53,515 nt of DNA from Candidatus Magasanikiibacteriota bacterium. Its GTDB lineage: Bacteria; Patescibacteriota; Patescibacteriia; Magasanikbacterales; UBA10003. The DNA is taken from the NCBI GenBank assembly GCA_016214465.1, contig JACROI010000032.1, forward strand, positions 1 to 53,515, in the 5' to 3' direction. Below are positions 5,644 through 23,040 of this stretch, piece by piece (position 1 is the first letter of the stretch; each line of letters begins with the position of its first letter). Below the pieces are notes generated by a model. The model saw nothing but the letters and a program-made list of their open reading frames with translations. It had not been told where the DNA came from and searched no databases. Both the position numbers and the translations under genes were made by a program.

Positions 5644-5681
5644 TTTTGTCTTTTTATTTTTTTTTGGTATAATACACATAT

Positions 5682-5963: not shown

Positions 5964-5976
5964 CCATTTTATTTCT

Positions 5977-6549: not shown

Positions 6550-6587
6550 TTCTGATGGAGCGAAGCGACTGAAGGATCTATTTATAT

Positions 6588-6989: not shown

Positions 6990-6993
6990 ACAT

Positions 6994-7359: not shown

Positions 7360-7428
7360 CTTTTTTATGACTTTTTAGCCGTTTTAGTGTATAATAAAGG
7401 CAGAAATAATTTAAATAAAATAAAGTAT

Positions 7429-10143
7429 ATGTCAAAAAAGACATACGCGATTTTTATAACGCTGGCAATGTCGGTTATTTTAGGCGTGGTTCTGCCGGTA
7501 CAAGCGGCCGGGTGGGTGGCGCAGAGTTCGGGGACAACTCAGGCACTGAATGGTGTGAATTTTACTGACTATTGGAATGGTCTGGCTGTTGGGTATAACG
7601 GCACCATTTTAGATTTTATTAGTAATGGCTGGGTAGCACGGAATTCCGGGGTTGAGAACACTCTTCAAGATGTTGACGTGTATGGCGGCAGTATGGCTTT
7701 GGTTGTGGGAGACAATGGTACGATTTTGAAGACGACCAATGGTGGAAGTACTTGGGAGCCACAAAATTCCGGAGTGACTGCTATTTTATATGGGGTGAAA
7801 ATAATAAATAGCAGTATTGCTTATGTTGTTGGTCAGTGGGGCACGATTTTGAAAACCACTAATGGCGGCGCTACTTGGTTGCCATTGACATCAGGGACTT
7901 TCAAAGATTTGCACGATATTACCGTTTCTCCCAATTCAAACTCTGTGCTATGGGCGGTTGGGAAAAATAGCATTGTGCTTTACTCAAATAATGCCGGTTT
8001 TACCTGGAATGAGTATGCGGTATCCACAGATAATAGAGCCTTAGCTGCCGTTCGCAGTCTTTCTTCTTCTATCTTACTGGCGGCCGGCAGTACTGGCAAT
8101 CCTGCGGATTACAAGATTTCACGTAGTATTGATGCCGGCGCCACCTGGAGTCAAGCCGCGAGCGATGTTGCGATAACCGGTTTTGTTGAGGATATTGACA
8201 TGAATGGTTTGTTTGGGTTTGCTGTCGGTTATGGCAGTAACACGTTTAAGACTAGCGACGGTGGATTAAATTGGAGTAAGATTAATATTGCGCCAGGTAA
8301 TAATTTTTATGGTGTAGATGTACTGGGCGCGGCGGCAGTAGCGGTTGGGTATGGCGGACAGATTATGAAATATGATGAAACAGCGCCGAATGCGCCAACT
8401 AATCTTATCAAAACAACCGCTGACAGCATTAATATACCGGAGTTTACATGGAGCGCGGCGAATGATGACTCTTTTGGCACAGGCATTGCCAAATATCAAT
8501 ATTCTTTAGATGGTTCCCTGTCTTATGTCAATGTCGATATTGGCACTTCAGCCACCGTCACCAGCGCTCTTTCTAACGGACCTCACACCATATCTGTTCG
8601 CGCTGTTGATAAGGCGGATAATAATAGTGTTTCGGCGACATTGAGTTTTACCATCGGCGCGCCTGATACTACTCCTCCAACCGTTGGCGCTGTCACGCAA
8701 ACTACTGCCACGGTTGGGTCTGCTCAAACTTTTTCCGCCGCATATTCCGATAACGTTGGCGTAACCAATTGTTGGTTTTATGTCAATGACGCGCTTCAAG
8801 ATGGAAGTATGAATTTAAGTAATGGTTTGGCCAGCAAATTATATACTTTTACATCAGCGGGCAGTTATTCTGTGAAAGTCGCTTGTACTGATGGCGCTAA
8901 TGATGGTTGGGGAACACCAGTTACTGTCGTAGTTTCAGCCGCGGCCGGGCCTGACACTACCGCACCTGACACAATTATAAATAGCAAACCGTCATTGAGT
9001 ACAGTCAGCACCTCGGCAACTTTTGGATTTTTCGCCAACGAATCAGCTACTTTTGAATGTAAATTAGATACTGGAATTTTTGCCGTTTGCACAAGTCCTA
9101 AAATTTATGACGGTTTGTCAGTTGGCAGCCATACTTTTCAAGTGCGCGCGATTGACACCGCCGGCAATGTTGACGCCACTCCGGATTCCTATACTTGGAC
9201 AATAACCACCGCGCCGGCAGTGGCGGCAGACACCGTGGCTCCATCAACACCTTCGGGCTTGCAAAAAATAAGCAATGAGGCAGACGCAACCCCGACTTTT
9301 GTTTGGAATTCCACGAGCGATAATGTTGGCGTAACTTCGTATTTGATTCAAATTGACAACGGCTCTTTGATTGATAATGGCGGATCCACCAGCTATACCA
9401 TTCCCAGTAATTTGAGCAACGGCTCACACTCATTCAAAGTTTTGGCCAAAGACGCGGCTGGCAACACCAGTCTGACCAGTTCTTTCACTTTTACTGTTAA
9501 TGCCAGCGCCGCGGCTGTTTCCTGCCCGTTAAACACGCAAAAGGCCTATAAAAGTTCCGCTTCCAAAGCGGTCTTCTACATCACCGCCGATTGCACCAAG
9601 CGGCCATTTAAAAATGGCCCGTCTTTTTTCACCTATTTTGATTCTTGGTCTGAAGTAATCACCACCACTAAAACAATTCTGGATTCCATTGCCAATGACC
9701 AGCTCGGTTTCACGCCGGCCGGACCAAAATATGATCCAAAATATGGCGCGTTGGTGAAAATTGTCACTGACCAGAAAGTGTATTTGCTTTTGGGCACTGA
9801 AAAATATTGGATTATTTCCGAATCGGTTTTCATTGGCTTGAAATACGATTGGAAATGGATTGAAGATGTGGACGCGGGCTTGCTTGATAAATATTCCATT
9901 GGCTCGGAAATCACCTATACTGACCACCACCCGAATTACACTATTGTTAAATATGCCGGCTTTGCCAATACTTATCGCTTGGAGCCGGATCCTGATGATT
10001 ATTCCAAACAAGTGAAGCGTTGGATTAAAAATGAAAAGATTTTCAATGCCTTGAAATTCCGCTGGGACCGCATTGTCACCGTGCCCAATAATGAGACCTA
10101 CAAAGACGGAAAAGTAATGGATGAAAGTGAAGTGAATCTTTAA
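7429..10143 (+). CDS. Large secreted protein: BNR/Ycf48-like beta-propeller plus Ig-like repeats
   Basis: The signal peptide is MSKKTYAIFITLAMSVILGVVLPVQA. S/T-x-D/N-G-G-x-T/N-W motifs recur (TTNGGSTWEP, TTNGGATWLP, SIDAGATWSQ, TSDGGLNWSK). Repeated about 100-aa segments then follow with DTTPP/DTTAP/DTVAP linkers. The ATG at 7429 is preferred to the ORF-track start. Confidence 0.7.
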   Translation: MSKKTYAIFITLAMSVILGVVLPVQAAGWVAQSSGTTQALNGVNFTDYWNGLAVGYNGTILDFISNGWVARNSGVENTLQDVDVYGGSMALVVGDNGTILKTTNGGSTWEPQNSGVTAILYGVKIINSSIAYVVGQWGTILKTTNGGATWLPLTSGTFKDLHDITVSPNSNSVLWAVGKNSIVLYSNNAGFTWNEYAVSTDNRALAAVRSLSSSILLAAGSTGNPADYKISRSIDAGATWSQAASDVAITGFVEDIDMNGLFGFAVGYGSNTFKTSDGGLNWSKINIAPGNNFYGVDVLGAAAVAVGYGGQIMKYDETAPNAPTNLIKTTADSINIPEFTWSAANDDSFGTGIAKYQYSLDGSLSYVNVDIGTSATVTSALSNGPHTISVRAVDKADNNSVSATLSFTIGAPDTTPPTVGAVTQTTATVGSAQTFSAAYSDNVGVTNCWFYVNDALQDGSMNLSNGLASKLYTFTSAGSYSVKVACTDGANDGWGTPVTVVVSAAAGPDTTAPDTIINSKPSLSTVSTSATFGFFANESATFECKLDTGIFAVCTSPKIYDGLSVGSHTFQVRAIDTAGNVDATPDSYTWTITTAPAVAADTVAPSTPSGLQKISNEADATPTFVWNSTSDNVGVTSYLIQIDNGSLIDNGGSTSYTIPSNLSNGSHSFKVLAKDAAGNTSLTSSFTFTVNASAAAVSCPLNTQKAYKSSASKAVFYITADCTKRPFKNGPSFFTYFDSWSEVITTTKTILDSIANDQLGFTPAGPKYDPKYGALVKIVTDQKVYLLLGTEKYWIISESVFIGLKYDWKWIEDVDAGLLDKYSIGSEITYTDHHPNYTIVKYAGFANTYRLEPDPDDYSKQVKRWIKNEKIFNALKFRWDRIVTVPNNETYKDGKVMDESEVNL

Positions 10144-10911: not shown

Positions 10912-10939
10912 TTGACTTTTTGTAGGTTTTTATTACAAT
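10912..10939 (+). promoter_or_regulatory. Sigma70-like promoter TTGACT-16-TACAAT upstream of the first DGR target gene
   Basis: ttgact (10912-10917), a 16-nt spacer, then tacaat (10934-10939). Confidence 0.4.
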
Positions 10940-11019
10940 ATAAGCACTATGCCGTTACATAAAATTGGTCTGCCGGAATTTGCTCAAATTGAACCATCGC
11001 CGGATTCTCCGCCCAGCAG

Positions 11020-13827
11020 ATGTGGGATATTTTTCAAGATTTGAAAAAATCTTGGAGTGATTTTTTGCGCGCGAGCAACGCGAAGAAAAAATCCAGTGAG
11101 TCAGACGAGGATGAACGCGACTCGTTTAACATTTTGTTTGAAAAAGATAATCCAATCGCTGAGCAATTTCGCGCTTCCGCCACTTTTAAAAATCTTCAGC
11201 CGTGTCTGCACGCAATTTATAGCGACCCGGAAGCGCGTTTGGCTTGGGAGCAAGGTATGCAAAGACACAGCTCACAGTGGGAAAATGTTAATGGCAACTG
11301 GATCGAGTATCGCTTAATTGACGGCCGCCGTAAAGCGCTGGAAAAAAATTATGACGAGCTTCAGCAGGAAAAGTTTAATGCGCGTGCGAAACCGGCGCGG
11401 GAACGCCGCCGCACTTTGCAAGATGATTTAGCTGCCAAAGAATTGGAGCTGGCAGTGGTACGCTCAGAACAAGAAGTTCTGCGTCAAAAGTCGCCGGAGC
11501 TGGCCGCGAAAATTCTCGCGTCTGAACTTGAAGCTCGCCGCAAAGAATTACAGACCAAAGACGGGTTTATGTGGTTTCCTTCTCGGCGCGCCATTTTGGA
11601 AACCATTGAGGCACGCATGGCGGATAAAAATACTCTACGGCTTATCACGCTTGAAGGTCAAGCCGGTACTGGCAAAACATCATTTGTCCGCGCTTTGGCC
11701 AATAAATTTACCAAAGAAAACCCGGTTGAGGTAACGGTAAAAAGTAAAACAAAAGTGGACCGCCAACTTTTGGCCGACGAGACCTTGGACAGTAGCCATC
11801 CGGTTGTTTATCGTCCTATTCTTAAAGCCATTACCGGCAAAGCGCGTCCGGAAGACAAACCAACTGGGGACGGCAGGATTGCTTTTGTTGATGAGTTGAA
11901 CAAAGGCGATAATGACGAGATTGGCGACCTGGCCACTGTGCTTGATGGCTTGAAAGTCGGCGGCGTCACTCATTATGAGGGAATGGGAGCCAATCCCAAT
12001 GATAAAGTTTTGCCAAACGCGCTGGTGCTGGCAGCTCAAAATCCGGCTGGTGCCCGTTTTCTCAACCGCACCAAGTTCACTCCGGAGGTTCAGCGTAAAA
12101 TGGACATGATTCAACTTGATTATTTTCCTCAAACCAATGATAATCCTGAGCTATATGAGGCCTTTTTGGTCGCGCTAATGGATCAAGACGGCCGTATTCA
12201 AGCAAAAAAGTCGGAAATGTCTCCAGTCTGGGTCGCTCAATCAATCAAAGATAACAATGGACAAGAAATCGGTGTTCAGGATTCGCTCGTAACCGATGTC
12301 AAACATGGCGGTATGTTATGGCGTGTCGCGGAGATGCTTCATCAGTCATATGAAAATTTGGCCAAACGGAAAAATGCGCTTACCGATTCCAATTCCGACG
12401 CGCATATTCAAGGCCGCGTGCTTCCACCCGGAGATATTATGGCTTGGCTGGCCATGTATCGCAAAGAAGTTAAAAAAGGAATATCGCTTGAGCATTTTAT
12501 TTCCACGAAATTTTTTGATTGGCTTGAATCAAGTTTCACGGCCGACCATGATCAAGAGGACAAACGGCTGTATTTGGAATTGGCGGAAAAATATAGCATA
12601 ATACAAAAAACAGCCGCCGGTGAATATCAGGCAATGCCTCAAAATAAAATTGAAATTGACACGCTTACTCAACGGGATGTAGCTGAGCTTTCTCCGCGCG
12701 TTCCCCGCCATTTTATTCCTAAAGAGAAAGAAGCGCGTCCGTCTGATTACGCGCGCGGCATAATTGATTGGACAGCGCCGGATGGCAGGATTCATCGCCG
12801 TGTTGAATTTCGTTATGAGAAAATCGCGTTGCCGAAATTTTTCCGTTTGCCAGATTCAAAAGACGACGCGCCGATGTATCAAATTGTTGGAACAATAAAG
12901 GAATGTGAAAGTTTGCCGGAATTGATCGGTAAGCCGTATTTTAAAAAAGTTGAAAAAGATACAAATCAAGAATCTCCCACCTCTTTCATTGTCCGCGATT
13001 CACTCAACCCCTATCGCGAAGCCCTCTTGGCCGGCGGCATTGTCGCGTCTGATCCTGCTGTGGCAGAACGCAAGGATATGGCGATTGATTTAATTCAGCT
13101 TTTATCACAAGATCAATCATCATATCAAGCCGCCGGTCTGGCTGAATGGGCTAAATCATTGAATAATCTGGAAAGCCGTTTATCAGCCCTTTCTCCTGAA
13201 AAAAGAAAAATAGTGGAGCAAGAAATCAAAGACGGCTCCATCCCGGTCTTTATGCCAGGCAAAGACATCCAGTTTAGTTTGACCGTGGAGCAACTAACCA
13301 AACAACTCAAACCGCTGTGGATAAAAAACAGCCAAGCTCAAACTGTGGCCGACGGTTATTTGGAATTGGATTATTTTATCAATCTTATTCAAACCAAAGC
13401 CAAAGAATTACTGGTTGATGTGCCGGCTAACCCATATATTCTGCTGACCAAGCCGACTCAAGCTCCTGATGTCCGCACTTGCGACAAAACTCTAGACCTG
13501 CAAAAAGCCGAACTCCAAGCCATCAACAAAGAAAGAAAAAAACAAAACCAAGCCACTGCCTATTCCATGAATCCGCACGAATACGCGGCTCTTCAAGTCC
13601 TGTTCACCAAACGAACCCAATCAGAATCCGCCGTTCCTCTTACCGATTTAACCCCCTTAGACAGCAACACATGGACAAGATTTATTCATCTCCCGTTCTC
13701 TTCTGGCGGCAGTGTTCCGAGCGGTTGCTTCTACCCCGATGACCGCCGGCTTGGGTTCGGCTGGGGCGGTGCCGCGGGCGCGGATGCCGGGGGCGGCTTC
13801 CGCCTCTCGGTGAGGACAGAAATTTAA
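11020..13827 (+). CDS. DGR target protein 1: AAA+ (MoxR/AAA_5-like) ATPase fused to a C-terminal variable ligand-binding domain (VR1)
   Basis: Walker A GQAGTGKTS, Walker B RIAFVDELNKG and sensor-1-like LVLAAQNPAG are present. No signal peptide or TM segment is seen. The last ~290 aa are paralogous to ORF 18346-19281. The C-terminus ...GGSVPSGCFYPDDRRLGFGWGGAAGADAGGGFRLSVRTEI is encoded by VR1. Confidence 0.85.
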   Translation: MWDIFQDLKKSWSDFLRASNAKKKSSESDEDERDSFNILFEKDNPIAEQFRASATFKNLQPCLHAIYSDPEARLAWEQGMQRHSSQWENVNGNWIEYRLIDGRRKALEKNYDELQQEKFNARAKPARERRRTLQDDLAAKELELAVVRSEQEVLRQKSPELAAKILASELEARRKELQTKDGFMWFPSRRAILETIEARMADKNTLRLITLEGQAGTGKTSFVRALANKFTKENPVEVTVKSKTKVDRQLLADETLDSSHPVVYRPILKAITGKARPEDKPTGDGRIAFVDELNKGDNDEIGDLATVLDGLKVGGVTHYEGMGANPNDKVLPNALVLAAQNPAGARFLNRTKFTPEVQRKMDMIQLDYFPQTNDNPELYEAFLVALMDQDGRIQAKKSEMSPVWVAQSIKDNNGQEIGVQDSLVTDVKHGGMLWRVAEMLHQSYENLAKRKNALTDSNSDAHIQGRVLPPGDIMAWLAMYRKEVKKGISLEHFISTKFFDWLESSFTADHDQEDKRLYLELAEKYSIIQKTAAGEYQAMPQNKIEIDTLTQRDVAELSPRVPRHFIPKEKEARPSDYARGIIDWTAPDGRIHRRVEFRYEKIALPKFFRLPDSKDDAPMYQIVGTIKECESLPELIGKPYFKKVEKDTNQESPTSFIVRDSLNPYREALLAGGIVASDPAVAERKDMAIDLIQLLSQDQSSYQAAGLAEWAKSLNNLESRLSALSPEKRKIVEQEIKDGSIPVFMPGKDIQFSLTVEQLTKQLKPLWIKNSQAQTVADGYLELDYFINLIQTKAKELLVDVPANPYILLTKPTQAPDVRTCDKTLDLQKAELQAINKERKKQNQATAYSMNPHEYAALQVLFTKRTQSESAVPLTDLTPLDSNTWTRFIHLPFSSGGSVPSGCFYPDDRRLGFGWGGAAGADAGGGFRLSVRTEI
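12970..13091 (+). repeat. 122-nt near-identical DNA block shared by the two DGR target genes (copy A)
   Basis: It matches 18427-18548 with 3 mismatches by hand alignment. It encodes ESPTSFIVRDSLNPYREALL.GG.VASDPAVAERKDMAIDL. The sequence between this block and the VR is far more diverged between the paralogues. Confidence 0.8.
13697..13816 (+). repeat. DGR variable repeat VR1
   Basis: It aligns to TR 14295-14414. The 8 mismatches are all at TR adenines (VR1 positions 13706, 13712, 13721, 13727, 13732, 13748, 13753, 13762). Confidence 0.92.
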
Positions 13828-13839
13828 GTTTGATAATTG

Positions 13840-13911
13840 AAATGAGCGAGACAAAAGAAAAGTATTTTCTTTTGCGAGCGAATGAAATTATATGGCGAAG
13901 CCATATAATTG
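13840..13911 (+). other. 72-nt insertion in the VR1 3' flank (absent from the VR2 flank) with two perfect hairpins and 7-nt direct repeats
   Basis: The flanks tttgat(a/g)attg and ggattttttaagttttaagttttggttttcgattc are shared with 19271-19330. The insert is bounded by ataattg (13833-13839 and 13905-13911). The hairpins are caaaagaaaa-gta-ttttcttttg (13852-13874) and aattatatggc-gaa-gccatataatt (13886-13910). Confidence 0.7.
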
Positions 13912-14054
13912 GGATTTTTTAAGTTTTAAGTTTTGGTTTTCGATTCACTTTTTTTCCGCTTTTTTTGGTAGGAGCTGAAAAATGGTTAATAGAACCTTGC
14001 GCAATGCGCAAATGGTTTACCAGCTGATGTGACCGACTTGGCAGAGTCCAAAAT

Positions 14055-14132
14055 GGGTCTGTCGCCAAATAGTGTCTTTTGTCATTCCAGCGAAAGCGGG
14101 AATGATAATTTTGCTCATTTGGCGACAGTCCC
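14055..14132. other. Nested palindromic element (possible structured RNA or REP/MITE-like unit) between VR1 and TR
   Basis: The outer stem gggtctgtcgccaaat (14055-14070) pairs with atttggcgacagtccc (14117-14132) with one mismatch. It encloses the inner hairpin tcattcc-agcgaaagcg-ggaatga (14082-14105). Confidence 0.5.
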
Positions 14133-14293
14133 AAAAGATTAAATTTTTTGGAGAGGCCGTCGGCGCATCGTTTTGATGATTTAGTTGTGATTGTTGCATT
14201 GAAAGAAAATGTCCTCACGCGCGCGGCATAATATCGGCAGAGACGCAGTTGCGGCCGGGTTGATGTTTGCCGTGTTTTTCGGAGGCGGCGCCG

Positions 14294-14414
14294 CTCTCTT
14301 CTGACGGCAATGTTCCGAACGGTTACTTCAACCCCGATGACCGCCAGCTTAGGTTCGGCAGGGGCGGTGCCGCGGGCGCGGATGCCGGGGGCGGCTTCCG
14401 CCTCTCGGTGAGGA
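14294..14414 (+). repeat. DGR template repeat (TR)
   Basis: This is the 121-nt master copy of VR1/VR2. It contains 16 adenines, 9 of which are substituted in at least one VR. The 3' 54 nt are GC-rich and identical in all three copies (IMH-like). No functional N-terminal coding context exists upstream. Confidence 0.9.
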
Positions 14415-14423
14415 TGAATTTAC

Positions 14424-14801
14424 TTAATTTGATCCGGCTCGCACGCTGGCCAGCCATCCTCCGGCCATGCGAGAAAGTTCCTCCACCTGGTCGCTCCACG
14501 CAAAAAATTGATGTTCGTTGATAATATTTTCGTCAAGAGCCAGACGAATGAACAATTGTACTGTTTGAATTGTGCCGATAATTTTTAGGATATGAGGTTC
14601 TTTAAGAGGTTGGCGGGCGTAAAGAGCTTGGCCGGTCTGTTCCACAATTGTTAAAATTGCGGTTTGCAGTTTTTCTCCAAGACCATAACGCCATGGTTTT
14701 TTAAAATTTTGCGCGGCGGACGCTATTGGGCGATAAAGAAGATAACTTTTGAATATGAGCGGCGTTGAAGCAAAAATTGAATCCTGCGATGTAGAAGGCA
14801 T
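14424..14801 (-). CDS. avd: Avd-like accessory variability determinant (four-helix-bundle protein)
   Basis: The 125-aa product is YLLYRPIASAAQNFKKPWRYGLGEKLQTAILTIVEQTGQALYA...IQTVQLFIRLALDENIINEHQFFAWSDQVEELSRMAGGWLASV. It follows the helix pattern of Bordetella phage Avd and of 'four helix bundle / 23S rRNA-intervening-sequence' proteins. The start is taken at Met39 of the ORF-track entry. It lies on the opposite strand to TR and RT. Confidence 0.75.
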   Translation of the reverse strand: MPSTSQDSIFASTPLIFKSYLLYRPIASAAQNFKKPWRYGLGEKLQTAILTIVEQTGQALYARQPLKEPHILKIIGTIQTVQLFIRLALDENIINEHQFFAWSDQVEELSRMAGGWLASVRAGSN

Positions 14802-15756
14802 ATCGTTTGAAAAATTAATTACGCGCGAAAATCTCCTGCGGGCCTGGCGCTTATTTTTACGAGGAAAATCCAGACAACCGGCGGTGCGCAGATTTTGGTT
14901 GCACCTTGAGCGCAATTTGACCGCATTATATCATGATTTGATAAATAACGGCTACACGCACGGCGCTTATAAACATTTTACGGTTAATGACACCAAAAGA
15001 CGCGATATTTATGTGGCGCGCGTCAGGGATCGGGTAGTACACCAGCTTTTGGCTTCTTGCATTGAAGAAATTTATCAGCCAATTTTTATTCCGCACTCGT
15101 TCGCGGCGCAGAAAGGAAAGGGCGTAACCGCCGCGCGCCGGTACGCGTTTGATGTTATTTCCAGTATTCAAAAACAAGGCCATGTTTGGATTGGAAAAAT
15201 GGATGTGGAAAAATATTTTGCGAATATTGACCACGGAATCCTGCTTAACTTGTTGAGCCGGCGCGTAAAAGACGCGAAAATTCTAAATCTTTGCGAAATG
15301 ATTATAAATAGTTTTGGCAACGACAGGCATGGTCTGCCGCTTGGCAATCTCACCAGTCAGTGGTTTGCTAATATCTATTTGCATGAACTTGATTGGCACG
15401 CGCGGCATACTCTTGATATCCGTCATTATATGCGGTATAATGATGATGTGCTGATGATGTGCTCCAAAGAAGTTGAAGCGCGCCAGCGTACGGAAGCGAT
15501 TGTAAAATTTGTAAACGAGAAATTGCGTTTAACAATTCCCGAGTGTAAAACGGAGATTGTCAGCGTGCCCGGTAGTTCGGTGGATGTGCTTGGAATTGGC
15601 ACCGATGGATTTAAGCGATGGGTAAGGATAGCAACCGCGAAACGAGCCGCGCGTTTGCTGGATCAAAAATATGAACGACAAACTCCGGAATTTTTGGATA
15701 CGGCCTGTTCATATTTGGGATACGGAATAATCAGCGATGTCGCGTTTTCATTTTAA
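14755..15756 (+). CDS. DGR-type reverse transcriptase
   Basis: RT motifs are RRDIYVARVRDRVVHQLL, KMDVEKYFANIDH, the DGR-diagnostic LPLGNLTSQWFANIYL ([ILV]GxxxSQ) and the catalytic box YMRYNDDVLMM. The size of about 333 aa is typical of DGR RTs. It is adjacent to the TR. Confidence 0.9.
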   Translation: MSGVEAKIESCDVEGISFEKLITRENLLRAWRLFLRGKSRQPAVRRFWLHLERNLTALYHDLINNGYTHGAYKHFTVNDTKRRDIYVARVRDRVVHQLLASCIEEIYQPIFIPHSFAAQKGKGVTAARRYAFDVISSIQKQGHVWIGKMDVEKYFANIDHGILLNLLSRRVKDAKILNLCEMIINSFGNDRHGLPLGNLTSQWFANIYLHELDWHARHTLDIRHYMRYNDDVLMMCSKEVEARQRTEAIVKFVNEKLRLTIPECKTEIVSVPGSSVDVLGIGTDGFKRWVRIATAKRAARLLDQKYERQTPEFLDTACSYLGYGIISDVAFSF

Positions 15757-18340
15757 TAAATATATGCCGCGAAAACATATTTTGCCAAAAAGAGAAACAC
15801 AAAAATTTTTAGAAACCTCGTCGGAAAAGGGAGGCGACAAAACCGCGGCGGAAAAACGGGAACGTTTTGTTTCCGCGCGATTATCATCCGAAACGGATAT
15901 TGAAGCGCAAAAGCGTTGGCAAAAAGAAGACGGCGCGGTGGAGCGGCGCGCAAAAACAATGTTTGATAAAATCGCGGCGGATTTGGCAAGCGGAAAACAA
16001 GAAACAAGCGTATATCGTGAGTTGGGATTGCCTGAGACAGACAGTTTGATTTCAGATTTAACGCGGGCATCGCAAGACGCGGTATTTATTCCGTCTGACG
16101 ACTGGCATCGCGAAGTGGTGGACAAATTGCGGCATTACCGCGCTAAAGATAGCGAAACGGAGACCGATGTGTTGCGATTTTTGGTCTCGCCGGATACACC
16201 GGCGTCAACCCGTCTTGAATTTTTTGAAAAAGAAATACAGGGGCTTTTAGAGTACACTGCGGGAATAGATATGGCGAAGTTGCGAGAAATTGCGCCAACC
16301 GGTTCGAGCAAAGAAACAGAAAAAAAGGAAGACGAAAATATACCGCCATTGGAACTCCCGCCGCCGTCGCAAGATGAAATGAACACCAGTATGGACGAAA
16401 TGCAAGAAAAAAAAGAAGGCGGAACCGGCGGGTATTTTTCAGTGCATCCGTTTTGGGGAGGATATTATCGGGAGCAAATTTATGAGAATCATAAAGGTGG
16501 CGCTCGCTGGGGGCAGGCGGCGCGCGCGTATGGCCGGCCGACGGCGATTGGCGCGTTGAAAGAAGAACGAGTGATGCGTGGTTTGGCTCGTGGCAACGCG
16601 GTTACTGATTTACCAATGCCCTATGGTTTTGCGCCCAATCCAGCGTCATTCAAATCCATCGGAGCGCTGCTTGTTCAGTCAGCCGAGGGTTTGTGGCGTG
16701 TGGTAACAACAGGCGCAGCGCCGATTGATTTTACGGTTATGATTGGGAAAACAGATGTTCACCGTCACGCTGTTTTTTCATCCGAGGCGGAAGAAAAAAA
16801 AATGGCAGTGAATGATACTTGTGCCGGCGTGGAAGCTAAAAAAATGCTTCAATGGCTTGCCGGTTCCACCATTGAAAAAGCCCGCGTGATTAAGCGATTT
16901 GTAAAGGGCTTATTAAGATATTCGCAAGAAAACGCGCTTAACGCGGTGTATGAGAACGACCCTGACGGTTATTTTGCCGCGATTGAAAAGAACAAAAAAG
17001 CTGATTGCGATGTGGCTAATGCGTATTATTTAAATTTGCTTTCACGCGTTGAAATAAAAGCGCGGCTGGCCGTGGGCCATTATGTAAAAATGAAGGACGC
17101 AAATGGATCGGCGGTTATGGGAAGCGGCAGTCGACATGCCTGGAGTGAGGTGTGGGATGAGGCGGGACGGCAATGGATTGTATTTGACGCGACTCCGCCG
17201 GGAGACCCGACTATTGATGAAGAACCACCGGATGAAAAATCCGAAGATGACGCCGGGCCTGGTGATTATGGCGAGCAAGAAGCCCAGCCAATCATCGAAG
17301 AGGAATTTTTGAAATTCAAAGAAAAAATTGCCGAGGCCAAACGAAAAGCCGCGGAAGAAACAGCCACGCCGGAAGAGCGCGCGTCGCGCGAGTTTGCCAA
17401 ATCAGCCGGCTGCACGCCGGAGCAAGCGCGTCGCGTAATGGCTAAAATCGCCGAGGCCAGAAATGTCCGCGACGCGCGCGGACGAGTTGTCCGCGATGGG
17501 TTGGCTGATGAATTTCAGAAAATAGTGGAAACAAATTTTAAGGATGTGCCGGAGTATCGCGGTCCGGTTATGCGCTCGCAAGGGGATGAGATGGATGATA
17601 AAGTAATGATTGGCAAAGAGGTTCGTTTAGGAGTCGCGGATCCTTTGGGATATGCCAGAGAAATTTTACAACAGAAAATAACGCAAGAATATGGAGGAAT
17701 GGATGTGTGGCTGGTGTTTGACCGCAGCGGCTCAATGGATGAAATAGATACGACAACCAATCGTCCAAAAAAAGAAGAACAGCAACTGGCCGGATTTTTA
17801 ACGCTGGACGGCATCAATGCTTTTTCCTATAAAACAGAATCCGCGGCGCGGCAGGATTTATTGATTTCTCCGCTTTCCGTGCGTTCTTCAGTGATTGCTT
17901 TTCAGGGTAATAACGCCGATGCTTTAAAATCTTTAGGCGCGAGCTGGACGCCCAAGGAGCAATATGATATTTGGAGCGGTCTTGAGTCCAATATCGGCGG
18001 CGGCACTCCGGCGCATTTGGGAATTATGAAAGCGCGCGCTGAAATTGAACGAGCGATAGCGCTAGATAAGAAAAATAAAGGTTTTTTAAATGAAAAGAAA
18101 CGGTTGCGGGTGGTGATGGTTTTTATGGATGGAGTTGTGGATAATGAGACAGCATATTTAGCCGAACAAAAAAAGCTGGAGGATTTGGAAGTATTTGTGT
18201 CAAGCTGGGGCATGACTGAATCCGCGCGCCAAGTTGATGCTTATTCCGAAGGGCACTGCGTGCCATCAGCGAGAGATATGATTGAACCGGTGGCCAAGCA
18301 TATTGTTGCCAAAGCTCAATTATTAAAATTAAAACAATAA
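15737..18340 (+). CDS. Transglutaminase-like cysteine protease/cross-linking domain plus vWA (MIDAS) domain protein
   Basis: The TGase core is KKADCDVANAYYLNLLSRVEIKARLAVGHY ... SRHAWSEVWDEAGRQWIVFDATP (Cys-His-Asp). The vWA MIDAS motif is DVWLVFDRSGSMDE, followed later by VVMVFMDGVVDNE. There are acidic low-complexity linkers and no signal peptide. The start overlaps the RT stop; an alternative ATG lies at 15764. Confidence 0.8.
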   Translation: MSRFHFNKYMPRKHILPKRETQKFLETSSEKGGDKTAAEKRERFVSARLSSETDIEAQKRWQKEDGAVERRAKTMFDKIAADLASGKQETSVYRELGLPETDSLISDLTRASQDAVFIPSDDWHREVVDKLRHYRAKDSETETDVLRFLVSPDTPASTRLEFFEKEIQGLLEYTAGIDMAKLREIAPTGSSKETEKKEDENIPPLELPPPSQDEMNTSMDEMQEKKEGGTGGYFSVHPFWGGYYREQIYENHKGGARWGQAARAYGRPTAIGALKEERVMRGLARGNAVTDLPMPYGFAPNPASFKSIGALLVQSAEGLWRVVTTGAAPIDFTVMIGKTDVHRHAVFSSEAEEKKMAVNDTCAGVEAKKMLQWLAGSTIEKARVIKRFVKGLLRYSQENALNAVYENDPDGYFAAIEKNKKADCDVANAYYLNLLSRVEIKARLAVGHYVKMKDANGSAVMGSGSRHAWSEVWDEAGRQWIVFDATPPGDPTIDEEPPDEKSEDDAGPGDYGEQEAQPIIEEEFLKFKEKIAEAKRKAAEETATPEERASREFAKSAGCTPEQARRVMAKIAEARNVRDARGRVVRDGLADEFQKIVETNFKDVPEYRGPVMRSQGDEMDDKVMIGKEVRLGVADPLGYAREILQQKITQEYGGMDVWLVFDRSGSMDEIDTTTNRPKKEEQQLAGFLTLDGINAFSYKTESAARQDLLISPLSVRSSVIAFQGNNADALKSLGASWTPKEQYDIWSGLESNIGGGTPAHLGIMKARAEIERAIALDKKNKGFLNEKKRLRVVMVFMDGVVDNETAYLAEQKKLEDLEVFVSSWGMTESARQVDAYSEGHCVPSARDMIEPVAKHIVAKAQLLKLKQ

Positions 18341-18345
18341 TTTCT

Positions 18346-19281
18346 ATGCCCCCCCGCGACCACGGTCCAACTTATCCCGAATACATCATCGCTTCTTTTG
18401 AAGATATGGAAGAGGTTCATCCTCCTGAATCTCCCACCTCTTTCATTGTCCGCGACTCACTCAACCCCTATCGCGAAGCCCTCTTGGTCGGCGGCGTTGT
18501 CGCGTCTGATCCTGCTGTGGCAGAACGCAAGGATATGGCGATTGATTTGGATAAAATTCTGGAAAGTGACATTGTTTCTTACCGAGCTTCCAATCTTTTG
18601 CGCTGGGCCTCTGCCTTGGAATCAGTCAAAGGCGATCTCCGTCTGACTCCTGAAAAACGCGCCATTATTGAGCAGGAAGTTAAGGAAGGAGCCATTATTA
18701 TCTTTATGCCAGGCCGCGCCACTCAACTTGAAACCACTGTTGATGAATACCAACAACTGCGACCAAAATGGATAAAAGACAGTCAACCTCAAACCCTTGA
18801 TGATACCTATATTTGGGACCATCTCGCCTCTCTTATTTCCAACAAAGATCAATCCCTGGTCCAAGCTGTGCCTGTTCGTCCATATTTTATGCTTATCAAA
18901 CCAACTGCCACAGTAGAGCCGCGCACCGTCAGTAAAACAGTAGACCTACAAAAACAAGAACTTGTCAAAATCAACCAAGAACGAAAAACGGCCGGCCTCG
19001 CTCCTGCGCAAGTTGTAAATCCGGCTGAATACGCCGCTTTTATGCAACTGGCCACAGAGCGCGTCCAACAGTTATCCTCGCAACCTCTTAACAATCTCAC
19101 CCCGCCTGATGATGTGAATGTTTCATACAACAGTTTTATCAATCTCCCTCTCTCTTCTGGCGGCAATGTTCCGCGCGGTTACTTCTACCCCGATGACCGC
19201 CGGCTTAGGTTCGGCTGGGGCGGTGCCGCGGGCGCGGATGCCGGGGGCGGCTTCCGCCTCTCGGTGAGGACAGAAATTTAA
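18346..19281 (+). CDS. DGR target protein 2: stand-alone paralogue of the target-1 C-terminal domain (VR2)
   Basis: It aligns along its whole length to the last ~290 aa of ORF 11020-13827. The C-terminus ...GGNVPRGYFYPDDRRLRFGWGGAAGADAGGGFRLSVRTEI is encoded by VR2. Confidence 0.85.
   Translation: MPPRDHGPTYPEYIIASFEDMEEVHPPESPTSFIVRDSLNPYREALLVGGVVASDPAVAERKDMAIDLDKILESDIVSYRASNLLRWASALESVKGDLRLTPEKRAIIEQEVKEGAIIIFMPGRATQLETTVDEYQQLRPKWIKDSQPQTLDDTYIWDHLASLISNKDQSLVQAVPVRPYFMLIKPTATVEPRTVSKTVDLQKQELVKINQERKTAGLAPAQVVNPAEYAAFMQLATERVQQLSSQPLNNLTPPDDVNVSYNSFINLPLSSGGNVPRGYFYPDDRRLRFGWGGAAGADAGGGFRLSVRTEI
18427..18548 (+). repeat. 122-nt near-identical DNA block shared by the two DGR target genes (copy B)
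   Basis: See copy A (12970-13091). Confidence 0.8.
19150..19270 (+). repeat. DGR variable repeat VR2
   Basis: It aligns to TR 14294-14414. The 6 mismatches are all at TR adenines (TR 14304, 14318, 14319, 14330, 14346, 14360). Confidence 0.92.
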
Positions 19282-19335
19282 GTTTGATGATTGGGATTTT
19301 TTAAGTTTTAAGTTTTGGTTTTCGATTCGGATTTG

Positions 19336-19364
19336 TTGCCAGGAATTATAAGTTGTGATAATAT
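19336..19364 (+). promoter_or_regulatory. Sigma70-like promoter TTGCCA-17-TAATAT
   Basis: ttgcca (19336-19341), a 17-nt spacer, then taatat (19359-19364) preceded by TG. Confidence 0.35.
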
Positions 19365-19390
19365 GTAGGTGTGGATAAAAATTAAAAAGT

Positions 19391-19735
19391 ATGGATAAAC
19401 AAACAAAAAAAGAGTTTGAAAATTTGGTATGGATTATTAAGGAGAGTTTTGATGCAATAGAAATTAGATTCAATGGTTTGGAGAAGAGATTTGACGGCCT
19501 GGAAATTAGATTCAATGGTTTGGAGAAGAGATTTGATAGATTGGAAGATAAAGTAGACAACGGTTTTATTTTTGTTAATCAAGAATTGGTTGACATCAAG
19601 GAAAGAATCAGCCGATTGGAAAAAAGAACCATTGAAGATTCTGACGCGCAAGCAGAGGAAATTTTGAAACTTAAAAAAAGAATTGATTGGTTGGAAAAGC
19701 AATTTAAACGAATTCAACCGGCGTTTGCGCATTAA
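19391..19735 (+). CDS. Small coiled-coil protein with 14-aa tandem repeat
   Basis: Heptad-like repeats EIRFNGLEKRFDGL occur twice, followed by LEDKV...RISRLEKR...RIDWLEKQFKR. Confidence 0.6.
   Translation: MDKQTKKEFENLVWIIKESFDAIEIRFNGLEKRFDGLEIRFNGLEKRFDRLEDKVDNGFIFVNQELVDIKERISRLEKRTIEDSDAQAEEILKLKKRIDWLEKQFKRIQPAFAH
19460..19543 (+). repeat. 42-bp tandem direct repeat (2 copies) inside the coiled-coil CDS
   Basis: gaaattagattcaatggtttggagaagagatttga occurs at 19460 and 19502. The first 35 nt of each unit are identical. Confidence 0.85.
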
Positions 19736-19737
19736 AG

Positions 19738-19766
19738 TTGACAGTTTTGAACAGATGTGGTATAAT
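19738..19766 (+). promoter_or_regulatory. Consensus sigma70 promoter TTGACA-17-TATAAT (extended -10 TGg)
   Basis: ttgaca (19738-19743), a 17-nt spacer ending in tgg, then tataat (19761-19766). Confidence 0.5.
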
Positions 19767-19769
19767 ATA

Positions 19770-19802
19770 AAAAGAATCAGTTGAATAAACTGGTTCTTTT
19801 TT
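19770..19802 (+). terminator. Intrinsic terminator-like hairpin in the nusA leader
   Basis: The 13-bp stem aaaagaatcagtt/aactggttctttt has one G-U pair and a loop gaata, and runs into a T tract. An A tract upstream makes it potentially bidirectional. Confidence 0.55.
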
Positions 19803-19828
19803 ATTAACTAATGTATAATACAATCAAT

Positions 19829-21085
19829 ATGGCGTCACCAATAACACAGGCAATCAAGCAAATTTGCGAAGAAAAAAATCTTTCATATGAGGCGGTTTTG
19901 GAAACCGTTCAAACAGCGTTAGCCGCGGCTTATCGCAAGGATTTTGGTGAAAAAAATCAAAATGTGCAGGTGGAATTTAATCCGGAAACCGGTGAAATGA
20001 AGGTCTTTGACGTGAAAACCGTGGTGGAAGATGTTGATTTGGAAGCAGAGACAGTTGAGTGGGAAAAAGTAAAAGCCGAGCACGATGAGTTGATTAAAAA
20101 GGCGGAAGAAAATGGCGAACCAATGCCTGAACCATTGGCTTTTAAAAGATTTAATCCTAAAACCGAATGGATGATTGCCGAGGCCAAAAGCGAGTATCCC
20201 AAAGCGAAATTGGAAGAAGTGATTCGTCGTCCTTTGGAAATTCCAACGGCTTTTGGCCGCATGGCAGCTCAAACAGCCAAGCAGGTGATTATTCAGAAAT
20301 TGCGCGAAGCTGAACGAGATATGGTTTATCAAGAATTTAAGGGCCGTGAGGGTGAGTTGTTGGTGGGCACAGTCGGACGGCGTGAAGGCCGATTGGTGCT
20401 GGTTGATGTTGGTAAAGCCACAGCGGTTTTGCCGCAGGAAGAACAGATTGAAATGGAGTGCTATAATCCAGGCAGTAAAATTAAGGTCTATGTGTTGGGC
20501 GTGAACTTGACTCAGCGCGGTTCGGAAATTCGCGTGTCCCGCACTCATCCGGAAATGGTAAAAAAGATTTTTGCAACGGAAATTCCGGAAGTGGCCAGCG
20601 GCTCGGTGGAAATCAAAGGCATTGCTCGCGATGCCGGCAGCCGCTCTAAGGTGGCGGTATTGGCTAAAGAAGAAAATATTGATCCGATCGGTTCTTGTAT
20701 TGGTCAGCGCGGCAGCAGAATACAGACAATTATTTCCGAATTGGGCGGAGAAAAAATTGATATTATCGCTTTTGATGAAAATCAGGAAAAATACATCGCG
20801 AACGCTTTGTCTCCGGCCAAAGTTTTGTCAGTTAATCTGCATGAAGAATCAAAATCCGCCATGGTGCAGGTGGCGCCTGATCAGTATTCATTGGCTATCG
20901 GTCGCGGCGGACAAAATGTTCATTTGGCGTCGCGTTTAACCGGTTGGCAGGTAATGGTGGAGCAGGTTGGCGTGGAAGCGCCGATAGAAGAGGCGGCTGT
21001 CGTCGCCGATACAGCGCCAGTTGAAGTTGTTGAACCGGAAGTAAAAGAAGAAGCAAAATCAGAAGAAACGAAAAACGTTGAATAA
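19829..21085 (+). CDS. nusA: Transcription termination/antitermination factor NusA
   Basis: The N-terminal domain is ITQAIKQICEEKNLSYEAVLETVQTALAAAYRK. An S1-like segment and two KH motifs follow (GSCIGQRGSRIQTIISELGGEKIDII, LAIGRGGQNVHLASRLTGW). The ATG at 19829 is preferred because 19812-19819 reads as an extended -10 (tgtataat). Confidence 0.9.
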   Translation: MASPITQAIKQICEEKNLSYEAVLETVQTALAAAYRKDFGEKNQNVQVEFNPETGEMKVFDVKTVVEDVDLEAETVEWEKVKAEHDELIKKAEENGEPMPEPLAFKRFNPKTEWMIAEAKSEYPKAKLEEVIRRPLEIPTAFGRMAAQTAKQVIIQKLREAERDMVYQEFKGREGELLVGTVGRREGRLVLVDVGKATAVLPQEEQIEMECYNPGSKIKVYVLGVNLTQRGSEIRVSRTHPEMVKKIFATEIPEVASGSVEIKGIARDAGSRSKVAVLAKEENIDPIGSCIGQRGSRIQTIISELGGEKIDIIAFDENQEKYIANALSPAKVLSVNLHEESKSAMVQVAPDQYSLAIGRGGQNVHLASRLTGWQVMVEQVGVEAPIEEAAVVADTAPVEVVEPEVKEEAKSEETKNVE

Positions 21086-21091
21086 TAAAAT

Positions 21092-21802
21092 ATGTTTTCT
21101 CAAATTTTTTACGCTGTTCTTTATCAGCCCTTGCTGAATATCTTGGTTTTTTTCTACAATATTATTCCCGGGCATGATTTTGGCGTGGCTATTATTATTT
21201 TGACTATCATTATCAGATTGATACTTTGGCCATTATCCAAAAAAGCCATTGCCGGACAAAAAGCCATGTCTTCGCTCCAGCCAAAGATTAAGGAATTGCA
21301 AGTAAAATTCAAAGATAGCAAGCAGGAATTGGCCAAAGCCACCATGGAATTGTATAAAAATGAGAAAGTAAATCCCTTGGCGTCTTGTTTGCCGATGCTG
21401 GTACAGTTGCCCATTTTGATTGCTTTGTATTGGGTATTGATGGCGGTTTTGAAATCGGAAAAATTTGACTTGCTTTATCCTTTTATTCAAAATCCCGGCA
21501 CGATCAAAACTCTGGCGTTTGGTTTTTTGAATCTGGCGGATAAGAGTTGGGTGTTGGCGATTTTGGCCGGCGCGGCCCAATATTGGCAGACCAAGATGTT
21601 GCCCATGACTCCGCCAGTAGTGAAAGGCGAGGGCAGCAAGGACGAAGGTATGGCGGTGATGATGAATAAGCAGATGCTTTATATGATGCCTTTAATGACT
21701 GTATTTATTGGAGGCACTCTGCCGGGCGGACTTACTTTTTATTGGTTAATCACGACTTTAGCCACCGGGTTTCAGCAATGGTTGATGTTTAGAAAAAAGT
21801 AA
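21092..21802 (+). CDS. yidC: Membrane protein insertase YidC (short form)
   Basis: GVAIIILTIIIRLILWPLSKKAIAGQKAMSSLQPKIKELQVKFKD...ELYKNEKVNPLASCLPMLVQLPILIALY is the conserved YidC/Oxa1 core. Confidence 0.88.
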   Translation: MFSQIFYAVLYQPLLNILVFFYNIIPGHDFGVAIIILTIIIRLILWPLSKKAIAGQKAMSSLQPKIKELQVKFKDSKQELAKATMELYKNEKVNPLASCLPMLVQLPILIALYWVLMAVLKSEKFDLLYPFIQNPGTIKTLAFGFLNLADKSWVLAILAGAAQYWQTKMLPMTPPVVKGEGSKDEGMAVMMNKQMLYMMPLMTVFIGGTLPGGLTFYWLITTLATGFQQWLMFRKK

Positions 21803-21803
21803 T

Positions 21804-22094
21804 ATGTTATTGTTGTTTTCCAAATTGAAAAATTTACCTGTTTTTACGCAAAGCGGAGTTAAGCTTGGCCAAATTATTGATGTTGAAATTGATTTGGATT
21901 CGCAATCAATTTTGCGTTACGCAATCAAGCGCGGGATTGTGAGTCGCGGCGTTTTGCTAATTCATCGCAGTCAGGTTGTTGCGATTACCGATGAAAAAAT
22001 GACAGTGGAAGATGCGATGATTAAAAAAAGCCAGACAATGAACATAAAAGAGGCGGTAGTTCAGCCAGCTACTGGAATTTCCGCCCGCGAATGA
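21804..22094 (+). CDS. PRC-barrel domain protein (YlmC/YmxH-like)
   Basis: LKNLPVFTQSGVKLGQIIDVEIDLDSQSILRYAI follows the PRC-barrel pattern. Confidence 0.6.
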   Translation: MLLLFSKLKNLPVFTQSGVKLGQIIDVEIDLDSQSILRYAIKRGIVSRGVLLIHRSQVVAITDEKMTVEDAMIKKSQTMNIKEAVVQPATGISARE

Positions 22095-22095
22095 T

Positions 22096-23040
22096 ATGGA
22101 TTTAGGAGAGGCAGTCAAAAAGACCTTGGCATTTTTTGAGCTTTTTAAGCATCCTCTGACCAGTTTTGAATTACACAAGTTGCTTTATTGCGAAAAAAAA
22201 ATTGATCTGTCGGAAATTGTTTTACAAGTGAAGCAAGCGGGAATTCAAGAAGCCAACGGCTTCTTTTTTTTATCTTCCGGTTCATCGGATTTACATTTAG
22301 AGCGTCAAGATCGCGCCATTAGCAATGATAGAAAATTTGTTTTGGCTCGCCGCGCGGCTCGGCTGATCAGTTGGGTGCCGTTTGTGCGGTTAGTCGCTGT
22401 TTGCAACACTTTAAGTTTTGAAGCGGCGGATAAGGGCAGTGATATTGATTTTTTTATTATTACCCGTTCTTGCCGGATTTGGCTTGCTAGATTTTTGGTG
22501 TCGGCAATTTTGTCAATTTTTAATTTACGTCGGCGCGGTTACGATGTTACTGACAAAATTTGTTTGAGTTTTTTTATCAGTGATGATGATTTAGATTTGA
22601 GAAAAATAGCTTTACCAATTGACGCTCAAGGCAATCCGGATATTTATTTGGTTTATTGGATTTCCAATCTGATTCCTTTGACAAACAGAGGAAAAACTTT
22701 GGAGAAATTTTGGCAAGCCAACGATTGGGCGTTCGCGTATTTGGCTGATTTTGATTGGCAAGAAAAAATCAAAAATTTGCGTGAAATAAACATTTGGCGC
22801 GGGTTGAATTGGACACAGGATTGTTTGGAGCGTAATTTGGGTAATTATTTTGGCGATTGTCTGGAAAAGTTTTTAAAAAAAATTCAATTATTTAAAATCC
22901 TTCGCCACCAACAAAGCCGGTATTTTGAACAAGGCACGGCCGTGGTGGTGAATGATAAAATGTTGAAATTTCACGAAGAAGATCGGCGTGAATTTTTTAG
23001 AAATAAATGGAGAGAAATATGCGTTGGATTGAATATCTGA
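22096..23040 (+). CDS. Hypothetical protein, possible Pol-beta-type nucleotidyltransferase fold
   Basis: The motif GSDIDFFIIT (G-S ... D-x-D) is present. No other recognisable signature was found. Confidence 0.4.
   Translation: MDLGEAVKKTLAFFELFKHPLTSFELHKLLYCEKKIDLSEIVLQVKQAGIQEANGFFFLSSGSSDLHLERQDRAISNDRKFVLARRAARLISWVPFVRLVAVCNTLSFEAADKGSDIDFFIITRSCRIWLARFLVSAILSIFNLRRRGYDVTDKICLSFFISDDDLDLRKIALPIDAQGNPDIYLVYWISNLIPLTNRGKTLEKFWQANDWAFAYLADFDWQEKIKNLREINIWRGLNWTQDCLERNLGNYFGDCLEKFLKKIQLFKILRHQQSRYFEQGTAVVVNDKMLKFHEEDRREFFRNKWREICVGLNI

Follow-up and report, generated by a model that had tools for sequence, protein, structure and literature searches.

A retroelement-diversified MoxR-type ATPase and its transglutaminase-like/vWA partner in a Candidatus Magasanikbacteria genome

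Related systems and what this locus adds

Diversity-generating retroelements (DGRs) are unusually abundant in bacteria that belong to the candidate phyla radiation (CPR), where the functions of their targets are obscure. The architecture seen most often in a CPR DGR target is a fusion to an AAA-ATPase (Paul et al. 2017, as cited by Dore et al. 2024). Wu et al. 2018 (PMC5758913) described targets in CPR that carry a P-loop NTPase domain or a 'Midasin' AAA domain (category g1, UVR4) and an arrangement of avd and template repeat (TR) that is specific to CPR, and found the genes sandwiched among the DGR components mostly uninformative. CPR DGR targets are mostly devoid of recognisable domains (Roux 2021), and the reverse transcriptases (RTs) of these elements are reported as a separate clade (Dore et al. 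2024; Roux 2021). Here we describe a DGR locus on contig JACROI010000032.1, which public sources assign to Candidatus Magasanikbacteria, a CPR/Patescibacteria lineage; the whole stretch analysed, 53,515 nucleotides (nt), is referred to as the window. The DGR has two targets, T1, an AAA+ ATPase fused to a diversified domain, and T2, a stand-alone version of that domain, each ending in a variable repeat (VR). Between them lies the gene of an 867-amino-acid (aa) protein that combines a transglutaminase-like (TGL) core with a domain of the von Willebrand factor A (vWA) type, here called the TGL-vWA protein. The order of the components is T1, TR, Avd (on the minus strand), RT, the TGL-vWA gene, T2:

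10949-11044, plus strand: short open reading frame (ORF) encoding MPLHKIGLPEFAQIEPSPDSPP, the N-terminal peptide of T1 homologues, in another frame than the T1 body
11020-13827, plus strand: T1, 935 aa, AAA_5/MoxR-class AAA+ ATPase
11650-12057, plus strand: AAA_5 core of T1, residues 211-346, from Pfam and family alignments
12967-13827, plus strand: VR-bearing domain of T1, residues ~650-935, paralogous to T2
13693-13816, plus strand: VR1, T1 residues 892-932
14291-14414, plus strand: TR, with 16 adenines and 12 A-containing codons
14424-14801, minus strand: Avd; the ORF reaches 14915, the likely start being Met39 at 14801
14749-15756, plus strand: DGR reverse transcriptase, with LGNLTSQ at residues 198-204 and YNDD at 230-233
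15737-18340, plus strand: TGL-vWA protein, 867 aa
16865-17191, plus strand: TGL core, residues 377-485, from Pfam, alignment and Foldseek
17534-18340, plus strand: vWA domain, residues ~600-867, with D662-x-S664-x-S666, GGGTP at 754-758 and D798
18346-19281, plus strand: T2, stand-alone VR-bearing domain of 311 aa, starting 5 nt after the TGL-vWA stop
19147-19270, plus strand: VR2, T2 residues 268-308

The ORFs lie where the original prediction had read them, every motif that it had quoted from T1 and the 867-aa ORF is present, and T2 is, as it had said, a stand-alone paralogue of the T1 C-terminal domain that begins just past the TGL-vWA stop.

The locus is a member of the CPR AAA-fused target class (Paul et al. 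2017 via Dore et al. 2024; Wu et al. 2018 g1/UVR4, cassette subtype B3), from which it differs in nothing essential; membership is judged here by the CPR genome and the AAA_5 domain upstream of the VR. It shares with this class the CPR host, a VR C-terminal to a Midasin/AAA_5-type ATPase, and the unusual avd/TR arrangement, as well as the lack of a signal peptide or membrane segment and a VR-domain fold that cannot be assigned by sequence. The original prediction had known of no characterised case of an ATPase fused to a DGR-variable domain, and had staked its reading on this architecture not being a described DGR target class; for the ATPase fusion it is one, already described in CPR (Paul et al. 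2017 via Dore et al. 2024; Wu et al. 2018, PMC5758913). A conserved TGL-vWA partner, a stand-alone paralogous target and a DGR-free module do not figure in the accessible descriptions of this class. Likewise, no description of a TGL-vWA partner of CPR DGR targets was found in the searchable literature, whose coverage does not extend to the full text of Paul et al. 2017.

A second relative is the MoxR-vWA-transglutaminase operon of Zhang & Aravind 2012 (PMC3495828), in whose model the vWA protein recruits, the ATPase unwinds and the TGL enzyme cleaves; the prediction had taken such operons as established. Here, too, a MoxR-class AAA+ ATPase and a vWA domain occur in genetic linkage with a TGL domain that has a Cys-His-Asp triad, and the TGL model is closest to TgpA. 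Unlike YebA/TgpA, which is polytopic (~8 transmembrane segments) and has its vWA separate or fused to MoxR, the TGL and vWA domains are here fused to each other in a soluble protein. The ATPase also differs from that of the operon in its long extra domains, one of them DGR-diversified, and a retroelement lies inside or beside the operon.

The DGR-diversified MoxR-vWA ternary systems (VMAP) of Kaur et al. 2020 form a third point of comparison. With these VMAP/iSTAND systems (Kaur et al. 2020; Dore et al. 2024) the locus has in common a MoxR-type ATPase, a vWA domain and a DGR-hypervariable domain, predicted to be cytoplasmic and proposed to act in conflict or antigen sensing. In the described systems the variable FGS(CLec) domain is fused to the vWA protein, whereas here it is carried by the ATPase or is free, and the vWA forms the C-terminal end of its protein; a third component with a peptidase or cyclase is defining there, whereas here none was found and the TGL domain sits on the vWA protein. 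The known hosts are multicellular cyanobacteria, actinobacteria and Chromatiales, as opposed to CPR. No VMAP-type third component was detected by Pfam or PADLOC, in a search that lacked a VMAP profile and could have passed over a very divergent region, and the operon has no further gene. Because the variable domain lies off the vWA protein and the third component was not found, we rejected membership in the VMAP ternary systems.

The closest solved structures come from NorQ-NorD, CbbQ-CbbO and Rea1: the ATPase is nearest to NorQ and CbbQ2, the vWA domain to Rea1-MIDAS and NorD, at very low sequence identity (11-16%). These are maturation or remodelling chaperones, each with one fixed client, and have neither a TGL domain nor diversification.

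The ATPase fusion, DGR-diversified MoxR-vWA systems and the MoxR-vWA-TGL operon are therefore known individually; new here is a soluble MoxR and TGL-vWA module whose ATPase carries a DGR-diversified domain. The ATPase fusion itself will not surprise specialists, and the conserved partner is the added value. We favour, with moderate confidence, the reading that this module is a cytoplasmic, ATP-driven recognition and processing machine of hypervariable specificity. The original prediction had arrived at the same kind of ATP-driven machine with a hypervariable recognition module; its anatomy and general logic hold, while its principal novelty does not.

The retroelement and its two targets

The DGR of this locus is genuine, combining adenine-specific changes, a Brt-like RT, an Avd protein and two VRs with a single TR. 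The TR and both VRs align without gaps, and all nine internal positions at which TR and VR mismatch are TR adenines (9/9 in 14295-14414, with 16 A in 120 nt; hypergeometric P = 1.1e-9), which upholds the predicted DGR with VR1 at the C-terminus of T1 and VR2 in T2. Two non-A differences between TR and VR both lie at the 5' edge, one in each VR. VR1 and VR2 differ from one another at A sites, and elsewhere each is identical to the TR except at one edge position; because the VRs match the TR outside the A sites while the domains that carry them are otherwise 57-59% identical in amino acid sequence, T1 and T2 have both been overwritten from this TR. The invariant 3' block of the TR has three occurrences only in the window, and no VR beyond VR1 and VR2 was found there. 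Three of the 12 A-containing codons of the TR are AAC or AAT, and its coding capacity amounts to at most ~3.7e8 amino-acid combinations. In a test of the boundary between IMH and IMH* (initiation of mutagenic homing), the GC-rich block common to TR, VR1 and VR2 was seen to stop abruptly at 14414, 13816 and 19270, respectively. The two VR flanks have no hairpin in common; hairpins on the VR1 side sit inside a 66-nt insertion.

The RT matches RVT_1 in Pfam (E = 3e-17) and is 29% identical to Brt of the Bordetella phage BPP-1 (E = 3e-32), with the SQ motif aligned; an [I/L]GxxxSQ motif, found beside the catalytic YxDD, is diagnostic of DGR RTs. Avd was recognised by the NCBIfam model DivGenRetAVD (E = 8e-11; 42 bits vs an equivalog cut-off of 80) and by Pfam bAvd (E = 1.2e-8; 35.8 bits vs a cut-off of 40). 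Its minus-strand placement with a plus-strand RT recurs in ~20 related CPR loci. A transcript running from TR to RT would cross avd in antisense.

In both targets the VR occupies the C-terminus of the ORF, and what the DGR rewrites is the final ~40 residues in each of two paralogous domains of ~290 aa. The fold of this domain was sought by several routes. Pfam, at E up to 10, returned no domain in T2, in the T1 C-terminus or in five stand-alone targets from related loci, nor was there an assignment in any of the 45 members of the variable-domain family alignment. Family profiles built from two alignments had no match among PDB sequences, solved DGR variable proteins included, and hhalign of the variable-domain alignment against Mtd of BPP-1 gave a probability of 0.1. 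Foldseek, run with the full-length T1 model against PDB and BFVD, found only AAA+ proteins among the 50 matches listed. In the AlphaFold2 (AF2) model the last ~110 residues of T1 form two helices and then four strands, the final three of which are covered by the VR. This secondary structure is compatible with a C-type lectin (CLec) fold without being diagnostic of one. Of the predicted C-type-lectin/FGE-like domain, then, the C-terminal position of the VR stood up, and the fold found no match by Pfam, PDB profiles or comparison with Mtd. Wu et al. 2018 (PMC5758913) met the same impasse with the fold of the CPR 'UVR' classes.

Several smaller features surround the repeats. The 66-nt insertion (13839-13904, plus strand) lies 3' of VR1, is absent from the otherwise matching VR2 flank and is bounded by ATAATTG direct repeats. 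Within it lie perfect hairpins of 10 bp and 11 bp, of which the second, with its T-run, resembles a terminator; the insertion may be a miniature mobile element. Between VR1 and TR, 13919-14218 on the minus strand holds a 99-aa ORF that has no Pfam or PADLOC match and spans a hairpin with a 13-bp stem and a GAAA loop (14079-14108; TTGTCATTCCAGC/GCGGGAATGATAA), which occurs once in the window. The distance from VR1 to TR, 598 nt, exceeds that in related loci by ~80-230 nt.

The ATPase, its partner and their conserved linkage

T1 consists of an N-terminal helical region, the AAA+ core, a beta-rich middle domain and the C-terminal VR-bearing domain of ~290 aa. The core carries GQAGTGKTS (213-221), RIAFVDELNKG (286-296) and LVLAAQNPAG (335-344) and matches AAA_5 in Pfam with 36.3 bits, against a cut-off of 22. 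Family alignments show conservation of the Walker A lysine K219, Walker B D291-E292, the sensor-1 asparagine N341 and the arginines R350 and R359. As a query on its own T1 gave no meaningful match to PDB sequences, and the family profile found a P-loop match to TRIP13 only. The AF2 model (pLDDT 88.1) is matched by Foldseek to dynein AAA modules, NorQ (TMt 0.67) and CbbQ2 (TMt 0.64), and to viral proteins labelled COG0714 MoxR-like; together with the Pfam score, the NorQ and CbbQ2 matches substantiate the MoxR/AAA_5-like core of the prediction. The ATPase family is small and distinct: in a set of 1.84 billion representative proteins it has 251 matches with E no higher than 1e-3.

The 5' end of T1 is probably frameshifted by 1 nt, either through an assembly error or as a real 5' truncation. 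Three-frame translation against the homologue alignment identified MPLHKIGLPEFAQIEPSPDSPP as the conserved N-terminal peptide of T1 homologues. The body of T1 starts ...AQQMWDIF, and a 1-nt indel near 11005-11013 would join it to the frame of this peptide. A promoter-like site at 10912-10939 agrees with the upstream start.

The 867-aa protein comprises a helical domain, a beta-sandwich, the TGL core, a helical linker and the vWA domain. It carries KKADCDVANAYY (420-431), SRHAWSEVWDEAGRQWIVFDATP (465-487) and VWLVFDRSGSMDE (657-669), and Pfam recognises Transglut_core with 32.8 bits, against a cut-off of 23. Across 51 homologues C424, H467, D484, D662, S666 and D798 are invariant, and S664 nearly so, and both the TGL catalytic triad and the metal ion-dependent adhesion site (MIDAS) look functional. 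The vWA domain has no Pfam match in the 867-aa sequence itself; full-length homologues match VWA_2 (21/51) and VWA (18/51), and the family profile finds vWA chains among PDB sequences, where the single sequence as query gave no meaningful match. With the AF2 model (pLDDT 84.7), Foldseek returned TgpA (2.9e-9) and Rea1-MIDAS (1.7e-8), and also the vWA domains of TEM8, TRAP and CMG2 and NorD in the NorQD complex. Pfam, homologues, fold and invariant residues thus agree with the predicted Cys-His-Asp core and intact MIDAS motif. The profile searches that had been proposed as a check placed AAA_5 and Transglut_core above their cut-offs, with the vWA domain recovered through homologues and the family profile instead of its own Pfam match.

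The start codon of this protein is uncertain. The predicted overlap with the RT gene amounts to 20 nt with the 867-aa start; public annotation gives 858 aa, a length that would fit the next ATG at 15764 and leave no overlap.

We judged localisation by hydropathy, as the maximum over 19 residues on the Kyte-Doolittle scale (KD19). In T1, T2 and the 867-aa protein this maximum does not exceed 1.07, compared with 2.2 or more in three control proteins of the window that are secreted or membrane-bound, and no hydrophobic segment of the signal-peptide or membrane type is present in T1, T2 or the 867-aa protein, in accord with what had been predicted for T1. A cytoplasmic location is predicted for all components of the module, and the absence of such segments led us to reject a surface or secreted target. 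In the most explicit form of that idea, the module would be exported non-classically, or delivered into the host of an episymbiont, as an attachment factor or effector whose variable domain would bind molecules of the host. Surface or tail proteins make up most of the characterised DGR targets, CPR bacteria are regarded as episymbionts, attachment is reportedly among the proposed roles, and secreted BNR/Ig-like proteins are encoded just upstream of T1. These upstream genes are not kept with the module in related loci, however, and a variable domain fused to an ATPase needs a compartment that contains ATP; with the hydropathy result, this makes an extracellular or host-directed role very improbable.

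The module recurs well beyond this genome. Scanning one genome per species for the TGL-vWA alignment, we obtained 80 loci, nearly all labelled CPR, whose six-frame ORFs were searched with the window proteins; the full TGL-vWA family is present in 58. A homologue of the T1 ATPase region accompanies it in 47 of these 58 species-level loci: immediately downstream in 34 (gap <400 nt), 862 nt downstream in one, and upstream in the remaining 12, with the DGR or another gene between. The 11 loci lacking an ATPase homologue mostly have a contig end on the relevant side. RT and Avd occur together in 24/58, so that the insertion of RT and Avd into the operon, accurately predicted, is a recurrent arrangement and not a one-off. 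Among the 18 loci with ample flanks, 13 have an RT and five lack a DGR. These counts bear on the survey of neighbourhoods that the prediction had suggested.

Two gene orders are seen. In the first, the ATPase(-VR) gene is followed by TR, Avd on the minus strand, RT on the plus strand and TGL-vWA, as in the window, in its closest full-length relative (L001) and in 12 loci of the genome scan. In the second, TGL-vWA is followed directly by the ATPase (34 loci), with minus-strand Avd and plus-strand RT upstream or downstream. A search for TR/VR pairs with adenine bias revealed DGR repeats in 27 related loci. In 17 of them the ATPase protein has the VR at its C-terminus, and in eight the VR lies in stand-alone proteins of ~290-400 aa; one of these eight (L061) has both fused and stand-alone targets. 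The ATPase and the variable domain have undergone fusion and fission, and both forms are present in the window. Sampling in the reverse direction, from T1 homologues, was restricted to four loci with enough flank (L001, L002, L004, L005), all of which (4/4) contain the TGL-vWA gene. The locus is one copy of a cassette that is widespread in CPR and consists of a two-gene ATPase and TGL-vWA module, plus a DGR.

This conservation bears on whether the TGL-vWA gene is a mere neighbour, or a DGR accessory factor, uncoupled from the ATPase target. The uninformative character of most sandwiched genes in Wu et al. 2018 (PMC5758913) would favour such a reading. Adjacency is kept in 47/58 species-level loci, in two gene orders and many CPR lineages, and in DGR-free loci too, and AAA_5 with vWA/MIDAS is an established functional pair (Kaur et al. 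2020; Zhang & Aravind 2012). Because the linkage is conserved we rejected chance adjacency, and the mere-neighbour reading, to which we give next to no credence, is close to refuted.

Individual loci show further variants of the cassette. In L067 a 1242-aa ATPase ORF (4333-8058) contains two VRs (7175-7282 and 7939-8043), which implies tandem variable domains. In L025 a second VR (13248-13363) lies at the exact 5' edge of the ATPase ORF and is probably the end of a separate upstream target. The distant relatives L004 and L005 have an unfused organisation: a TGL-vWA-like protein (~877 aa), a stand-alone target, an ATPase (665-705 aa), a second stand-alone target and an RT on the minus strand; in L004 both stand-alone targets have VRs, and a plus-strand Avd is present. 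The contig of L001 has a second, different DGR 3.5 kb downstream (18607-22257), with RT on the minus and Avd on the plus strand; its TR spans 21935-22065, and its VR ends an unannotated 632-aa ORF. Another CPR family (L070-L088) encodes ~1050-aa transglutaminase-core proteins with shared core motifs, which have neither a vWA match nor an ATPase neighbour and form a natural outgroup for the linkage.

Possible role and genomic surroundings of the module

In the mechanism that we propose, the ATPase would form a ring, at which the vWA domain of the partner would dock through its MIDAS site, by analogy with NorQ-NorD, CbbQ-CbbO and the ring and MIDAS of Rea1. Hypervariable domains tethered to the ring, together with free T2 copies, would capture a protein ligand whose identity could be changed by DGR mutagenesis. 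ATP hydrolysis may then remodel or unfold the captured ligand, or the partner, and the TGL domain may act on the ligand by cleavage, cross-linking or deamidation, along the lines of the operon model of Zhang & Aravind 2012. We would expect a role in intracellular conflict, with recognition of fast-evolving phage or host-derived proteins, this being the least certain step; toxin-antitoxin and abortive-infection genes beside several relatives, and the mobile-element context of L004 and L005, are in keeping with it. That context, an integrative mobile element, is suggested by Replic_Relax beside the module in both loci and by DUF87 and a serine recombinase in L005.

A number of points weigh against this recognition and processing machine. 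We infer ring formation, vWA docking and TGL activity by analogy with known MoxR-vWA systems, and the variable domain is taken to bind a ligand for the sole reason that it is a DGR target. Its fold matched nothing in Pfam, among PDB sequences or in Mtd. Diversification is read from one assembled sequence, which does not itself demonstrate ongoing change, and T1 appears 5'-frameshifted in this genome. The module works without local diversification in some genomes, since five of the 18 loci with ample flanks lack a DGR. A role in defence is unproven because no VMAP-like third component and no PADLOC model was found.

The structural matches raise the question of whether the module might instead be a chaperone for assembly or maturation like NorQ-NorD, CbbQ-CbbO or RavA-ViaA, with the diversified domain tracking a client that varies rapidly, such as variable surface or pilus proteins of the same cell prior to their export. 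NorQ, NorD and CbbQ2, the closest structural matches, belong to maturation chaperones, and in some genomes the module occurs without a DGR. Yet a single-client chaperone has no obvious use for up to ~1e8 binding variants, the invariance of the TGL catalytic triad implies covalent chemistry beyond remodelling, and the neighbourhoods examined contain no conserved client gene. We regard the chaperone reading as improbable.

A closer competitor is the model of Dore et al. 2024 for DGR-diversified MoxR-associated targets, which its authors extended explicitly to CPR AAA-CLec targets. Here the variable domain would be an antigen sensor, and ligand binding would switch the ATPase and activate the TGL-vWA protein as a self-directed effector of an abortive or alarm response; cellular proteins would be cleaved or cross-linked, leading to dormancy or death, and the bound ligand itself would be left unprocessed. 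Genes of the abortive-infection and toxin-antitoxin type near relatives of the module speak for it. One relative (L002/L010) has the ATPase/TGL-vWA pair without a DGR and with AbiEii (13676-14353) between the two genes, L003 has two AbiEii genes upstream of the module (6352-9660), and in L001 a MNT/HepT pair lies directly upstream (9367-9996). On the other side, no recognised death effector, VMAP or adaptor domain was found, none of the PADLOC models matches T1, T2 or the TGL-vWA protein, and the flanks in the window are housekeeping genes and not a defence island. We consider this sensor model unlikely, though a serious contender; sequence data do not separate it from the machine that we favour.

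The processing machine can be put in a more far-reaching form, which we offer tentatively as possible. The commonest CPR DGR target class would be the subunit with which a soluble MoxR-vWA-transglutaminase machine recognises its substrates. The machine would in effect be a protease or cross-linker that depends on ATP and has its substrate specificity rewritten by a retroelement, for anticipatory protein-level immunity or host manipulation in mostly CRISPR-less organisms. The conserved partner provides the main CPR target class with a concrete hypothesis: AAA-fused targets come paired with a TGL-vWA(MIDAS) protein, which turns an 'ATPase-lectin fusion' into a defined three-protein system that could be reconstituted in vitro. 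If this holds, the use of DGRs as diversifiers of intracellular sensors would extend from multicellular bacteria to ultrasmall episymbionts, and the module could serve as a scaffold for engineered, evolvable protein targeting, a natural 'programmable degrader'. Should the mechanism prove wrong, the locus would remain an ordinary representative of a CPR DGR class already catalogued.

The surroundings of the module are those of an ordinary chromosome without a recognisable prophage. The flanks encode ArgRS, methyltransferases, a histidine kinase, two tRNAs, NusA, YidC and an O-antigen-ligase-like protein. A phage origin of the module was rejected because IMG/VR viral contigs contain no relatives of T1 or of the TGL-vWA protein. 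The only Rfam matches across the window are the two tRNAs. Nearly all long ORFs of the window are on the plus strand; the genuine-looking exceptions on the minus strand are Avd and one ORF that overlaps the NusA gene. Directly 3' of T2, 19391-19735 holds a 114-aa coiled-coil-like ORF with weak coiled-coil Pfam matches only, which contains an imperfect 42-nt tandem duplication (19440-19523). A consensus promoter for nusA follows at 19738-19766, 3' of this ORF.

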